Assembly: GCA_012178725.1 (NCBI GenBank) | Contig: GCA_012178725.1_3030.1 | Strand: one strand, 5' to 3' | From: a phage | Length of the DNA: 64,000 nt | Shown here: positions 8,996 to 39,654 of the stretch, piece after piece | Layout: each line of letters starts with the position of its first letter | Position numbering within the stretch: position 1 is the stretch's first letter | The notes under the pieces: generated by a model | What the model saw: only the letters and a program-made list of their open reading frames with translations | Databases searched by the model: none | What the model was told of the DNA's origin: nothing | Position numbers and translations under genes: made by a program

Positions 8996-9000
8996 TAAAA

Positions 9001-9014
9001 GGGCCTTCGGGCCC
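9001..9014 (+). promoter_or_regulatory. GC hairpin with UUCG loop between genes 37 and 38
   Basis: gggcc-ttcg-ggccc directly followed by the GGAGG ribosome-binding site and ATG of gene 38. Confidence 0.5.
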
Positions 9015-9025
9015 TGGAGGTTTTT

Positions 9026-9824: not shown

Positions 9825-9832
9825 TATAAATA
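9825..9832 (+). promoter_or_regulatory. T4-type late promoter (TATAAATA) for holin gene t
   Basis: Exact TATAAATA about 19 nt upstream of the t ATG, followed by AAAGGAGGG. Confidence 0.7.
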
Positions 9833-13362: not shown

Positions 13363-13512
13363 TTACTGCATGACTGTGATAACTGTCATGATAACACGTT
13401 GAATTCCGAACGCAAGAAGACCTCCTGCTATGGCTGGAACAACGCCTAAACCCGCCAGTAAAATGCTACCAGATACTAATGCAGCGCTTGTAATACCAAT
13501 GAATGGACTCAT
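13363..13512 (-). CDS. Small hydrophobic ORF (49 aa) in the motA.1 position
   Basis: Hand-called MSPFIGITSAALVSGSILLAGLGVVPAIAGG...; ATGA overlap with the gene 52 stop. Confidence 0.4.
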   Translation of the reverse strand: MSPFIGITSAALVSGSILLAGLGVVPAIAGGLLAFGIQRVIMTVITVMQ

Positions 13513-14837
13513 TTGATTTCCTCTAAATCTTTGGTGTATTCGGTAACTACATCAGTAGTTTTCCAATATTCGTTTTCTTCTTTTTTAGCTTTAGCTTCTT
13601 CAGCAAGTTTCTTTGCTTCATCGGAAGTCATATGAAAAATATTCATTCCAACTAGTTTATCAACATAAGAAGAATACATATCGATTTTCGAAAGTTCTTC
13701 GGTCAGTTCTTTACGAGTTTTACCCTGTACAACAATTTCACCTGAAATTACTTTCTTAATGAAATGTGCCTTGGCAAAGGCTAAACGAAAAGCTGACTCA
13801 GTTTCTTTGATTTTGTTATCAATTCGTTTTTGGACATAAGTTTTACGAACTTCAACAAAGTCTTTAATTAAATCAACTACGTTATCGTAAACTTGTAGTT
13901 TTCCTTTCTCATTAATAACCGTAATATTCTGAGAACGACGCTCAATCAACCCGAAGTCTTTCATAATTTTTGCGTGGCGTTCTTCTTCATTATCGCTCAA
14001 AGAATATTCTTTACGGAATTTAACTTTGAATCCAAAACCGTGCTCACCGCAAGCATCATCCCATGTAATGAAGCCTTTATCTTCAAGTGGGTCTAAAATT
14101 TTACTCACATAAGTTTCACGATCATACTTATACGGAATCTCAGTGATATGCATTTGAGTTCGTGAAGTAAACTTATATGTTCCACGAATTTCATATTGCC
14201 CATCAATTTCAACGACTTCACCACGAAATTCTGGGAATTCTACCTTCGGTTTAGTTACTTTCTTTCCTTGAAGAGCTTGCAGTACAGCTTTCTTAACAGA
14301 AGAAACACTATGAGGAAGAATGTAAGTTGCATAACCAGTTGCAATACCGGAAACACCATTAAGAAGAACAGTAGGAATAATAGGCAAATAGAAAGCAGGC
14401 GGAATGTGTTCTTTATCTTGATGTACCGGAGCATATTCAGTATCTTTATATACGTTATAGAAATTTTTACTTACACGAGCAAAAATATAACGACTTGCTG
14501 CTGCTTTTTGGACGGTACGAGAACCAAAGTTTCCTTGACCATCTAACAGAGGAAAGTTATTATTCCAAGTGTTAGCCATCAAAGCACCTGCGTCTTGCGC
14601 AGAGTTTTCACCATGATGATATCCAAGGTCCGCTACACCGCCTGCGATAGAAGCGAGTTTGTGAAACTTATCTTTATTTCCTCGTGCCAAATCAAGAGCT
14701 CGAGCAATAACAAATCGTTGAACTGGCTTAAATCCATCAATCATATTTGGAATGGCACGATTTTCAACCGTGTACATAGCATAAGCCAATGCTTCATTAT
14801 CAATGATACTTTTTAAATCGCGATTATTCAGTTGCAT
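13509..14837 (-). CDS. 52: DNA topoisomerase II medium subunit gp52
   Basis: 442-aa ORF matching T4 gp52 (GyrA-like) in length and sequence as recalled. Confidence 0.95.
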   Translation of the reverse strand: MQLNNRDLKSIIDNEALAYAMYTVENRAIPNMIDGFKPVQRFVIARALDLARGNKDKFHKLASIAGGVADLGYHHGENSAQDAGALMANTWNNNFPLLDGQGNFGSRTVQKAAASRYIFARVSKNFYNVYKDTEYAPVHQDKEHIPPAFYLPIIPTVLLNGVSGIATGYATYILPHSVSSVKKAVLQALQGKKVTKPKVEFPEFRGEVVEIDGQYEIRGTYKFTSRTQMHITEIPYKYDRETYVSKILDPLEDKGFITWDDACGEHGFGFKVKFRKEYSLSDNEEERHAKIMKDFGLIERRSQNITVINEKGKLQVYDNVVDLIKDFVEVRKTYVQKRIDNKIKETESAFRLAFAKAHFIKKVISGEIVVQGKTRKELTEELSKIDMYSSYVDKLVGMNIFHMTSDEAKKLAEEAKAKKEENEYWKTTDVVTEYTKDLEEIK

Positions 14838-14841
14838 AAAT

Positions 14842-14982
14842 TTACCATACTAGTGAATGTAGTGCCATAATAACATCAGAAATGAAAAGCACGACTTGAA
14901 TTAATCCGAACATTACTCCATAATATAGTGCTACTAATAAAGTAGCAAGGGCTAATGAATAGCCCAAGATTTTCTTAATCAT
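14842..14982 (-). CDS. Small membrane ORF (46 aa) in the 52.1 position
   Basis: Hand-called MIKKILGYSLALATLLVALYYGVMFGLIQ...; start overlaps the ac stop. Confidence 0.4.
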   Translation of the reverse strand: MIKKILGYSLALATLLVALYYGVMFGLIQVVLFISDVIMALHSLVW

Positions 14983-15133
14983 TAGTAGATAACAACACAA
15001 ATGTTAAATATGCACACATACCCTGGGCTAAAGCTTGCGAAAACACGCTGCTGGCATCAATACAGATAGTTAAAACACATGCTACTATCCAACAAATAAA
15101 TGAAATAACTCCTAATAATTTTGCAATATTCAT
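14975..15133 (-). CDS. ac: Small membrane protein in the ac position (52 aa)
   Basis: Hand-called MNIAKLLGVISFICWIVACVLTIC...; GAGGAAA ribosome-binding site; size and position as T4 ac. Confidence 0.5.
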   Translation of the reverse strand: MNIAKLLGVISFICWIVACVLTICIDASSVFSQALAQGMCAYLTFVLLSTND

Positions 15134-15140
15134 ATTTTCC

Positions 15141-15221
15141 TCACTGGCGTCCGAAGACGCCTTTAGTTTTAAGATTATTACGATAGAACTGCATCACATG
15201 TTCGTTATGGAAATTACTCAT
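15141..15221 (-). CDS. stp: Stp-position 26-aa peptide
   Basis: Hand-called [26 protein letters not shown]; ATG overlaps the ndd stop (TAATG); T4 Stp is 26 aa in this position. Confidence 0.6.
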
Positions 15222-15679
15222 TAATATGCCTGCAAAACAAATTTAAAGTTATCAGCCAACATACGGTTCATTTCTTCAAGTGTTTGATACTCAGAATGAT
15301 GATTACGAGTAAACGCCAAAGCTAACTGACCTTTACCAAATCCTGTCGTCAGAGGTTTCATCTTAGAAGCAGGCAGATAAAATACTGTGTATGGAACATT
15401 GTTATTTGCAATAGTACGTGCAAGCTGAGACCGACGTTGACGAATATGACTTAGAACTGCACTGAATCCTTGCTTAGAACGCTGATTACCTACATAAAAT
15501 CGTGCAGACACACATGGATTACTAAATGGACGACCATCTAATTTACTTACTAAAAAGTAAAATCCAGGTTTAGATAAAATGTCTTTATGCGGAGTTCCCA
15601 AAAACCATTCACCGCCCTTGATTGTGCCAATAACAGTTGCGCCTGCATTATTCAGATCAGTAACAGTCATGTATTTCAT
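15221..15679 (-). CDS. ndd: Nucleoid disruption protein Ndd
   Basis: ORF-track frame trimmed to the [13 protein letters not shown] start (152 aa, GAGGAAA ribosome-binding site); matches T4 Ndd. Confidence 0.9.
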
Positions 15680-15739
15680 ATTAATTTCCTCTAAATTATT
15701 TTCTACTCCAAGGCCGCATGAATACACGCGGCCATTAAA

Positions 15740-15955
15740 TTAATCGTCGCAGTCGACGCTCAATTCCCAAAACTCTTCTACGGTATAAGTTTCAATATCA
15801 TTTTCAATACAGAAACGTTCATTACTATTGTTTGCTAAAGTAGCGTTAACTGTCATTTTCTCGCTGGTACTCTTAAGAGGTGAAATACGAATTAACTGAT
15901 CACCGTTATCTAAACAAAAAATTTCACCAACTTTTACATCTTTAAAACTTTTCAT
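15740..15955 (-). CDS. Hypothetical protein (71 aa), ndd.x region
   Basis: ORF in operon orientation. Confidence 0.55.
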   Translation of the reverse strand: MKSFKDVKVGEIFCLDNGDQLIRISPLKSTSEKMTVNATLANNSNERFCIENDIETYTVEEFWELSVDCDD

Positions 15956-15963
15956 AATTCACC

Positions 15964-16074
15964 TCAAGGAGTATAAAATCCGAATGCAGTTGTTGACCAT
16001 CCCATCCAGTATGGGAAATTTGCACCAATGTAAAACATAAGAATATAAAACCAACCGCTCAGCAAATTCATCAT
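15964..16074 (-). CDS. Hydrophobic micropeptide (36 aa)
   Basis: Hand-called MMNLLSGWFYILMFYIGANFPYWMGW...; ATGA overlap with upstream stop. Confidence 0.35.
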   Translation of the reverse strand: MMNLLSGWFYILMFYIGANFPYWMGWSTTAFGFYTP

Positions 16075-17569: not shown

Positions 17570-17585
17570 AATTTTCCTTAGTTAA

Positions 17586-17597
17586 GGGCCGAAGCCC
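17586..17597 (-). promoter_or_regulatory. Intercistronic CUUCGG hairpin at the rIIB 3' end
   Basis: gggccgaagccc overlapping the rIIB stop; no U-run on the transcribed strand. Confidence 0.4.
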
Positions 17598-18536
17598 TTA
17601 TTTAAATTGTTCAGTAACGTCTTCAACTACTTCATATTGGCAGGTACGCATTTTAGCATCATTGTAATCAATCGGAATTGATACTACATCACGTGGATGT
17701 ACTTTAACTTTTACAACTCGGCTGGTTGAACTGCCAAAGTGACGAATATAAGATTTAGAACACACATGCAGACCACGAGAACAAGTTTGTGTATCATCGT
17801 CATTCACACGAGTACGCGGCATTTTAACTACTTTACCAGGACTGTTATCAAAGGTATTTGAGTGACAGTCAAAGTAATTGCTGCGAACTACTTTCCAAGC
17901 ATAGAAGTAACCATCTTCTGTAATTTCAATATCGTTTGCTACCAAGAAATCAAAAAGTCGAGATACCGCTTTCTGGCTTGGGTTTTCCAGCAGATTTTCC
18001 AAGAACGGAAAATAAAATTCAAAGTTTTCGCCTTTTTCCATCGAATCAAGAATACGATCAACCAAACCAGACCGCAATTCAATATTTTGATAGAATAAGC
18101 TTCCACCTTCAATTCGAACATCACCGGAAATATATTTTTCAACAGCGCGACGAACATTAATTTTTTGTGCCGCTTCTTCCAACTTATCCGCTACAAGCAG
18201 ATTAAGAATTTCCTGGAAGTTTGAATGAGTATTAGGAGTTGCGTTATAAGTTACACCGTCAACAGTAATTGAAATGAATTTTTTAGATGCATTCCAAATA
18301 ATGTCAGATTTAGCAACTGGAGCAATAACTGCATCGCTATTAACTTTAACTGTAATATCACCACTAATAGTAACTTTAGGGCGTTTAGCTTCTTCAGCAT
18401 TTTTCAAAACACGACGGATTGTGTCAACCGATACACCTTGCCAATCAGCCAATTCCTGTTGAGTGTAATTACCACTTGAATACAGTTTAACAATTTCAGC
18501 TTGTTCGTTTTTGGTCAGGCATTTAATATTGTACAT
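17598..18536 (-). CDS. rIIB: rIIB protein
   Basis: 312-aa ORF, length and synteny as T4 rIIB. Confidence 0.95.
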   Translation of the reverse strand: MYNIKCLTKNEQAEIVKLYSSGNYTQQELADWQGVSVDTIRRVLKNAEEAKRPKVTISGDITVKVNSDAVIAPVAKSDIIWNASKKFISITVDGVTYNATPNTHSNFQEILNLLVADKLEEAAQKINVRRAVEKYISGDVRIEGGSLFYQNIELRSGLVDRILDSMEKGENFEFYFPFLENLLENPSQKAVSRLFDFLVANDIEITEDGYFYAWKVVRSNYFDCHSNTFDNSPGKVVKMPRTRVNDDDTQTCSRGLHVCSKSYIRHFGSSTSRVVKVKVHPRDVVSIPIDYNDAKMRTCQYEVVEDVTEQFK

Positions 18537-39291: not shown

Positions 39292-39654
39292 TTAAAAGAA
39301 TTTAAATTTTTTCTTTGACCTTTTATTAAATGCATCTTGCAGTTGCATTGTAATACATTTTTCTACATGAGGAGCTAACTCAGCTTTTCTTTCTTGGTCA
39401 AGAACAGCAAAGTCCATTACGACTTTTCCATCAACCCAATCTAATTTTGTCACATACACAATGTGTGTAGAACCATCTTCTAGTTTAATGACAATCTCCT
39501 GGATAACATTTTCCATGGCAGATTTAATTATCTTAAGAGATTCATTAAAAAGACGTTCTTTTCTTTCTTCTTCCCCCTCCGAAGAGGGGGATTCATCGAT
39601 AATTTCTAGATCTAAATCTAAATCATCTTTATTCATTAAATTCTTCCATATCAC
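39292..39654 (-). CDS. 40: gp40-position protein
   Basis: 120-aa ORF between uvsX and 41; contains an in-frame UUCG hairpin (ccccctccgaagaggggg). Confidence 0.6.
   Translation of the reverse strand: MIWKNLMNKDDLDLDLEIIDESPSSEGEEERKERLFNESLKIIKSAMENVIQEIVIKLEDGSTHIVYVTKLDWVDGKVVMDFAVLDQERKAELAPHVEKCITMQLQDAFNKRSKKKFKFF

Follow-up and report, generated by a model that had tools for sequence, protein, structure and literature searches.

Locus and gene order

The window, a 64,000-nucleotide stretch of phage DNA, carries three very small genes between ndd and gene 52, all on the minus strand. Read along that strand, the genes are the following:

15221–15679, minus strand: ndd, nucleoid disruption protein, 152 aa (ORF list; Pfam PF06591, 317.8 bits; T4 annotation of the homologous locus)
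15141–15221, minus strand: stp, the 26-aa Stp peptide (identity to T4 Stp; PF08133; PHROG 6763)
14975–15133, minus strand: ac, acridine-sensitivity membrane protein, 52 aa (ORF list; T4 annotation; PHROG 2501)
14842–14982, minus strand: 52.1, predicted membrane protein, 46 aa, DUF7396 (PF24129, 81.9 bits; T4 annotation)
13509–14837, minus strand: gene 52, topoisomerase II medium subunit, 442 aa (ORF list; annotation of homologous loci)

A previous sequence-only reading of this DNA had called three tiny genes of 26, 52, and 46 aa at this position, and both the minus-strand sequence and the ORF list agree. The length of 46 aa for 52.1 is counted from its ATG; the mechanical ORF list gives a TTG-started form of 52 aa (14842–15000). 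The names ndd, stp, ac, 52.1, and 52 are exactly those annotated in T4 records at the homologous locus. A 701-nt region matched 582 phage records; its DNA identity is 99.9% with Escherichia phage vB_EcoM_Maryam and about 97% with T4. As judged from its sequence, the source phage is a Tequatrovirus, a relative of T4 and not T4 itself, and the region corresponds to the ndd–stp–ac–52.1–52 early-gene block of a T4-type phage. Since these T4 genes were already known, the gene part of the finding is a rediscovery. Ac has 52 aa here versus 51 aa in T4, with an extra Thr preceding the C-terminal ND; this Thr-insertion variant has been described in a 2025 preprint (bioRxiv 10.1101/2025.06.30.662393). 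In most GenBank records, including the closest one, stp is left unannotated, an omission that matters for surveys of anti-restriction functions and PrrC triggers.

The 26-aa ORF had been proposed to occupy the position at which T4 encodes Stp. Over all 26 residues, the peptide matches annotated T4 Stp (100% identity), leaving no difference at the peptide level. It scores 75.3 bits against the Pfam "Anticodon nuclease activator family" (PF08133; cut-off 25; full length, 1–26) and matches PHROG 6763 with E = 4e-21. The location between ndd and ac, the gene order, and the TAATG overlap with ndd are likewise those of T4 stp. Stp is an inhibitor of type Ic restriction (EcoprrI) and an activator of the PrrC anticodon nuclease (reviewed in PMC3014915), and identity with the characterized T4 peptide suggests that the peptide encoded here would have both activities. 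Residues 1–18 are the same as in T4, and the motif HNEHVMQ(F/W)(Y/H)R is kept in all collected homologues. The N-proximal 18 residues carry the function of Stp, while loss of the C-terminal 8 codons lowers activity moderately (PMC3014915). A largely dispensable C-terminus fits with this part of the peptide being free to hold an RNA element.

The ndd stop overlaps the stp start in TAATG, and the 52.1 start overlaps the ac stop in ATGATTAA; both overlaps had been noted in the sequence-only reading, and both are found on the minus strand. At the stp/ac junction (UGA-GGAAAAU-AUG), 7 nt separate stop and start, and the stop overlaps the Shine-Dalgarno (SD) sequence (U-GAGG). Gene 52 begins 4 nt past the 52.1 stop (TAA-AUUU-AUG). 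The chain thus has the anatomy of termination–reinitiation, in which stops and starts overlap or lie a few nt apart and the SD sits inside or abuts the upstream ORF. From this layout, translation of ndd–stp–ac–52.1–52 is probably coupled through the tight junctions themselves and not through the hairpin described below.

A UUCG hairpin at the 3' end of stp

The end of stp and the start of ac hold four further features:

15146–15161, minus strand: perfect 6-bp C(UUCG)G hairpin, GGCGUC-UUCG-GACGCC (GGCGTCTTCGGACGCC) (sequence, fold, synonymous-encoding test, conservation)
15139–15142, minus strand: ac SD, GAGG
15131–15133, minus strand: ac start codon
15131–15161, minus strand: 31-nt junction module, comprising the hairpin, 2–3 variable nt, and UGAGGAAAAUAUG (stp stop over SD, then the downstream start)

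The hairpin spans stp codons G21, V22, F23, G24, and R25 plus the first base of Q26, and AGUGAGGAAAAUAUG comes next. It lies 3 nt upstream of the ac SD, with the stp stop 2 nt past the stem and the ac AUG 12 nt away. A perfect hairpin within stp, just before the ac ribosome-binding site, was the central observation of the sequence-only reading. The sequence agrees, and fold prediction recovers the hairpin in both the minimum free energy (MFE) and centroid structures. In isolation, the 16-mer folds at −10.0 kcal/mol. The 141-nt region as a whole has an unremarkable fold z-score of −0.75, and the local hairpin alone stands out. In T4-type sequence, CUUA/UGAG pairs reaching the SD lengthen the hairpin in the MFE structure, an extension absent from the predicted folds of VR7- and Bp7-type junctions. 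A scan of positions 14300–16000 with Rfam 15 covariance models gave no match at E ≤ 1 on either strand.

In GenBank MK327929 (D5505), the hairpin carries the ARNOLD label "putative terminator." It resembles intrinsic terminators in being a short G+C-rich hairpin and an ARNOLD candidate, but a T-rich tail is present only on the antisense strand, where it is not conserved. On the sense strand, the tail is AGUGAGGAAAAUAUG, with no U-tract after the hairpin, and the plus (antisense) strand is the only one on which the terminator scan reports the site. A canonical intrinsic terminator on the sense strand was ruled out, as there is no U-tract. Our literature search found no paper discussing the stp hairpin: neither stp nor terminators come up in a T4 omics paper (PMC9697503), and the Ac preprint cited above leaves the hairpin unmentioned.

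Perfect UUCG hairpins of at least 6 bp number 11 on the minus (early-gene) strand of the window and one on the plus strand. The dinucleotide-shuffle expectation has a mean of 0.03 for CGAA loops, which in a plus-strand scan is the matching count, and 0.13 for TTCG loops, so the class is enriched roughly 100-fold or more on the minus strand. Given 11 such hairpins where about 0.03–0.13 are expected, the stp hairpin is more than a chance occurrence. In nine of the 11 minus-strand cases, the hairpin either straddles a stop codon or stands right behind one, and what comes next is promoter-like sequence or an SD with an AUG. The layout of hairpin and then SD recurs at 17583–17600 on the minus strand (TAAGGGCUUCGGCCCUUA-ACUAAGGAAAAUUAUG) and at 9000–9015 on the plus strand, ahead of the SD of the next gene. 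Within coding sequence, the stp hairpin is joined by only one other, in gene 40 (39572–39591).

The C(UUCG)G mRNA hairpins of T4 were reportedly described by Tuerk et al. in 1988, in volume 85 of PNAS (page 1364). The stp hairpin is a member of this class. It has the UUCG loop, the C:G closing pair, and a G+C-rich stem of 6 perfect pairs, and it is found where a cistron ends, on the sense strand of early genes. Class members usually have an (A)AGGGC stem and mostly stand just after the stop, whereas the stp hairpin has a GGCGUC stem and, although on the transcribed strand at the stp/ac boundary, sits inside the last stp codons. UUCG tetraloops were first noticed in T4 mRNA (history in PMC4371310). 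We regard the gene identities and the hairpin class assignment, taken together, as practically certain. The sequence-only reading was right in its gene calls but did not recognize that the hairpin belongs to the known T4 class; as one of an abundant, long-known group, the stp hairpin is less special than that reading implied.

Conservation among relatives

Stp loci were gathered by tblastn (799 records), by a degenerate DNA pattern for the N-terminal end of Stp (33 IMG/VR loci), and from individual records. The pattern proved more productive than an Ndd-based related-locus search, which yielded only 5 loci. The stem is kept in Tequatrovirus (T4 type), Dhakavirus (Bp7 type, ...GACGCU), and Gaprivervirus, where variants include a UUUG loop in VR7, GGGCGCC in TH22, and GGUGUC in IME281-like sequences. 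An unrelated peptide and an unconserved hairpin, which would have spoken against the sequence-only reading, are thus not what was found: the hairpin is kept in three Tevenvirinae genera.

Across 16 distinct junctions, 97.9% of cells are paired, compared with 25–55% when the 3' partner is slid by 1–3 columns. Three silent or neutral stem changes occur (C3>U, A12>G, and C16>U), all of which preserve pairing through G·U. No double compensatory change was found in the 16 distinct junctions, and covariation is one-sided, with no excess over the shuffle control.

More distant homologues separate the peptide from the RNA. Siphovirus Stp homologues (Kagunavirus G AB-2017, ZCEC5, and RP180; Drexlerviridae ZL19) keep KGVFGK without the hairpin, using the codons GGG/GGA GTG TTT GGA AAA. 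Conservation of the peptide alone therefore does not yield the hairpin. Retention of KGVFGK in siphoviruses also means that the C-terminal motif is conserved in its own right and that the hairpin is an overlay peculiar to the T-even lineage. Closer to T4, the Stp C-terminus of T2/TOPO13-type phages reads otherwise (NFGILG(F/S)K...), and the hairpin is missing. One stem pair is broken in FelixPlatter (R25H) and FriedrichZschokke (R25S), where the hairpin is predicted to retain about −4.5 kcal/mol; a 1-nt insertion occurs in vB_EcoM_FB. The hairpin-less T2/TOPO13 types and the stem-breaking isolates indicate that the hairpin is useful but not essential.

Codon choice

Because covariation cannot prove structure here, we used codon choice instead. 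The peptide GVFGRQ allows the stem only with wobble bases C, C, (C), A, and C, and the native codons GGC GTC TTC GGA CGC have exactly those. Their usage fractions among the genes of the window are 0.15, 0.08, 0.25, 0.30, and 0.13, giving a joint P of 1.2e-4. None of the 1,536 synonymous ways of encoding GVFGRQ folds more stably than the native one, which shares first place, and the codon-usage-weighted probability of an MFE at or below the native value is 1.7e-4. All five free wobble positions thus take the pairing-maximizing value against the codon bias of the phage itself. The structure is therefore under selection as RNA, in addition to the peptide that it encodes. The hairpin is real and under selection, yet ordinary for this phage group.

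A conserved junction beside a variable slot

Within the 31-nt module, positions T34–A42 and A44–G46 of UGAGGAAAAUAUG are invariant, and T43 is nearly so, in 16 distinct Tevenvirinae junctions despite the differing downstream gene. A 40-nt version of the junction matched 535 phage records, 304 of them at ≥99%. Between stp and 52.1, we found at least four unrelated or very distant types of hydrophobic ORF, each of 45–55 aa: Ac; MKFVHG..., which is distantly Ac-like; MIILVFIEL...; and MTSVFSF.../MQTVFTF.... These cassette types are spread over genera regardless of taxonomy, with the MIILVFIEL type present in Bp7 (Dhakavirus), TH22 (Gaprivervirus), and AugustSocin (Tequatrovirus). The next gene past the cassette, 52.1, is nearly invariant.

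Some genomes carry more than one cassette. FriedrichZschokke has two in tandem, and in IME281-like contigs an stp-cassette-52.1' segment is fused to a 'stp-cassette segment at a GAGTAAT microhomology. In FriedrichZschokke, the first cassette ends in the very sequence (GGTTCTAAAAATAGTTGAGGAGAATATTATG) that forms the 3' end of stp and its junction in T2/TOPO13. The T2-type stp allele appears to stem from a deletion that removed the hairpin and fused stp, at about codon 18, with the terminal part of a cassette gene.

PeSL elements (Arbiol et al. 2010, PMC2839356; PMC4122927) are similar in that a conserved stem-loop motif borders a variable cassette in a hyperplastic region. They differ in having an early promoter after the stem-loop, whereas the stp hairpin is followed by an SD and a start codon within 12 nt and overlaps coding sequence. 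No promoter-like site was found between the hairpin and the ac AUG, and the early sigma-70-type promoter of PeSL elements is thus missing. The indel or cassette boundary of PeSL elements does have a counterpart here, in the form of at least four cassettes, and tandem cassettes, after an invariant junction. It is conceivable, although we consider it rather unlikely, that the 31-nt block of hairpin and UGAGGAAAAUAUG serves as a dual "adapter," in which an RNA structure overprinted on the Stp C-terminus also provides, with 52.1, a docking site for small membrane-protein cassettes exchanged or stacked among T-even genera. If so, it would be a promoter-less, translation-coupled counterpart of PeSL elements.

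Discussion

What the hairpin does can be argued from its class and its position. The sequence-only reading had suggested translational coupling or control of RNA processing, which is plausible as a hypothesis. Our favored reading, held tentatively and at less than even confidence, is that it acts as an mRNA stability or boundary element; we rank this first because of the analogy with the hairpin class and the position at the end of a cistron. On a polycistronic early transcript, the hairpin would mark a cistron boundary, refolding fast behind ribosomes and blocking 3'→5' exonucleases, and it could possibly pause or weakly terminate RNA polymerase. The upstream ndd–stp segment would be protected, and its decay would be uncoupled from that of the downstream ac–52.1–52 segment. 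Intercistronic stabilizer hairpins include the REP sequences in E. coli malE–malF and stem-loops in the Rhodobacter puf operon. Like these, the stp hairpin is a stable stem-loop placed between cistrons, one that could halt 3' exonucleases so that segments of the mRNA would differ in stability. Unlike them, the stp hairpin is much shorter and embedded in coding sequence, and its stabilizer role is putative. We count against the boundary reading that ribosomes translating stp would melt the hairpin at each passage, making its occupancy dependent on the translation load of stp. The missing sense-strand U-tract, the one-sided covariation, and the natural variants that lack or break the hairpin weigh against it as well.

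The hairpin might instead control translation of ac, or of whichever cassette follows, by limiting independent 30S loading or backward sliding of the post-termination ribosome and so making expression dependent on finishing stp. This is possible but doubtful. The stp stop overlaps the ac SD with the AUG 7 nt on, hairpin, SD, and AUG form a single 31-nt block that is near-invariant while the downstream gene varies, the same hairpin-then-SD layout is seen at the two other sites in the window, and the T4-type MFE extension touches the SD. However, that extension is not predicted for VR7- or Bp7-type junctions, and the computed SD accessibility of the native sequence, 0.345, does not differ from the codon-weighted recoding mean of 0.368, with 54% of recodings at least as accessible. 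TOPO13-type phages, moreover, express this ac gene from behind a junction of another kind that has no hairpin, UUGAGGAGAAUAUUAUG. A separate "insulator" model, in which the hairpin keeps the ac SD single-stranded, was rejected; the partition-function accessibility of the SD/initiation region is average among the 1,536 synonymous recodings. We judge it unlikely that the junction owes its conservation chiefly to service as a recombination boundary, making it a PeSL analogue without a promoter and with a minor RNA role, in which the hairpin-SD-AUG block and 52.1 would supply homology arms for cassette swaps. Such a boundary would account for the invariant block. The cassette types distributed independently of phylogeny, the tandem double cassettes in FriedrichZschokke and the IME281-like contigs, and the stem-loop/promoter motifs reported at indel boundaries in the same ndd region (PMC4122927, Comeau et al. 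2014) are consistent with such a boundary. Homology arms, however, need neither a hairpin nor the most stable of 1,536 encodings, stem substitutions in diverged genera keep pairing, and the promoter that defines PeSL elements is missing after the hairpin.

Two further readings are far less probable. One would have the palindrome serve the opposite strand by intrinsically terminating antisense transcription (plus-strand, late-direction) that enters the early genes: the plus-strand stem is followed by TTTAGTTTTA, the terminator scan detects it, and the antisense form of the hairpin keeps a stability of −9.1 kcal/mol. Yet the T-rich tail is the reverse complement of L-K-T-K codons and is lost in Gaprivervirus-type junctions (AGTTAATTTCAG), and the nearest plus-strand late-promoter consensus, at 9825, is >5 kb upstream with several plus-strand terminator-like sites between. 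The UUCG loop is on the minus strand in 11 of the 12 perfect (at least 6-bp) hairpins of the window, which points to the sense RNA. It is equally improbable that the hairpin is a functionless by-product of the GVFGRQ peptide. The amino acid sequence does intrinsically permit a 6-bp stem, no double compensatory change occurs among the 16 junctions, and natural variants that lack or break the hairpin are viable. Against this stand the five wobble positions, all pairing-maximizing despite codon bias (P about 1e-4), the siphovirus homologues with the same peptide and no hairpin, and the roughly 100-fold or greater enrichment of the hairpin class on the minus strand.

Knowledge of UUCG hairpins in T4 mRNA goes back to 1988. 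With textbook T4 genes and a hairpin class already known, the finding matters little as such. What it adds is modest: evidence from codon choice for dual coding, a cassette slot with fixed borders, and a proposed origin of the T2-type Stp allele. In the stp hairpin, nature provides a clear case of RNA structure written over a peptide-coding sequence by nothing more than synonymous codon choice. The position of ac, in turn, is a swappable slot with fixed borders, which is relevant to current work on the roles of Ac and its neighbors.

Cassette slot at the ac position

Among the homologous loci collected (L-numbers), the position corresponding to ac in the window (14975-15133) proved to be a cassette slot, occupied by at least four distinct hydrophobic ORFs of 45-55 aa. 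The types found there, named by their N-terminal residues where they are not Ac itself, were:

Ac
MKFVHG...
MIILVFIEL...
MTSVFSF/MQTVFTF...

Across the loci compared (L013-L019, L021, L022, L043, L055, L056, L058 and L059), every type was flanked by the same junction upstream, comprising the stp hairpin, the stp stop overlapping the Shine-Dalgarno sequence (SD) and the downstream start, and by the same 52.1 gene downstream. The ORF types were intermingled among Tequatro-, Dhaka- and Gaprivervirus rather than sorted by genus. Separately, the ac frame of a T2 stock (L013 799-832, record PV958097) stops early at codon 11, where ATT TCA reads ATT TAA; given this premature stop, ac is apparently inactivated in that stock.

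Variant stp loci

IME281-like contigs of ~170.5 kb (L043 6163-6560; L048) carry a tandem duplication at the stp locus, in which a unit of stp, cassette and truncated 52.1 is joined through GAGTAAT microhomology to a second unit of stp and cassette that lacks the stp start. The hairpin and SD are present at both of the two stp copies. In T2 (L013) and TOPO13 (L014), the DNA encoding the Stp C-terminus, together with the downstream junction, is that of the 3' end of the first cassette gene of FriedrichZschokke (L018; 930-960). This identity suggests that the T2-type stp allele derived through a deletion in which the hairpin would have been lost along with the greater part of a cassette. In vB_EcoM_FB (L057, MT682711), the 3' arm of the hairpin contains a 1-nt insertion (GGACCGC) and stp is frameshifted into the downstream gene; the insertion is either genuine or an artefact of sequencing.

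Other hairpins and late promoters in the window

Three further hairpins were considered:

39572-39591, minus strand: 8-bp UUCG hairpin, UCCCCCUC-UUCG-GAGGGGGA, within an ORF of 114-120 aa
14929-14947, minus strand: hairpin TGCUACUUUAUUAGUAGCA, then CUAUAUUAUG, within 52.1
9000-9015, plus strand: UUCG hairpin AGGGCCUUCGGGCCCU, the sole plus-strand member in the window of the class of perfect UUCG hairpins

The first of these is, besides the stp hairpin, a second UUCG hairpin embedded in coding sequence, where it encodes ...ESPSSEGE...; its ORF lies between uvsX-like and gene 41-like ORFs and is, by position, gene 40. Both OE5505 and D5505 (GenBank MK327929) list the hairpin within 52.1 as an ARNOLD terminator. 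A promoter-like site, TTGCTA-17-TATTAT, overlaps this hairpin; lying ~80-110 nt ahead of gene 52, the site is possibly gene 52's own promoter. The plus-strand hairpin lies directly against GGAGGUUUUUAUGG, where the plus-strand gene that comes next has its SD and start; terminator scoring also picks this hairpin up on the minus strand. Across the whole window, shuffling predicts 10.25 (sd 3.42) copies of the late-promoter consensus TATAAATA, and each of the 100 shuffles held at least three; the actual number is only three, a low count that fits a window of mostly early and middle genes.

Unannotated stp genes and siphovirus homologues

Most T4-like phage records in GenBank leave stp unannotated, and often 52.1 as well. 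Even the closest record (L003, PQ799574; 99.9% identical) has no stp annotation, and Stp tblastn matches in such records usually fall under 'Ndd' or 'none'.

Stp homologues, mostly unannotated, are also carried by siphoviruses of 40-50 kb, including Kagunavirus, Drexlerviridae and many Salmonella phages (contigs L009, L010, L011, L012 and L023-L051). A second siphovirus Stp type retains only an N-terminal core of 10 residues, and one siphovirus contig (L033) has stp fused in frame with the following ORF. Raoultella phage RP180 shares 90% DNA identity with the window over the first 72 nt of stp, a resemblance that implies horizontal transfer of stp between Straboviridae and siphoviruses.
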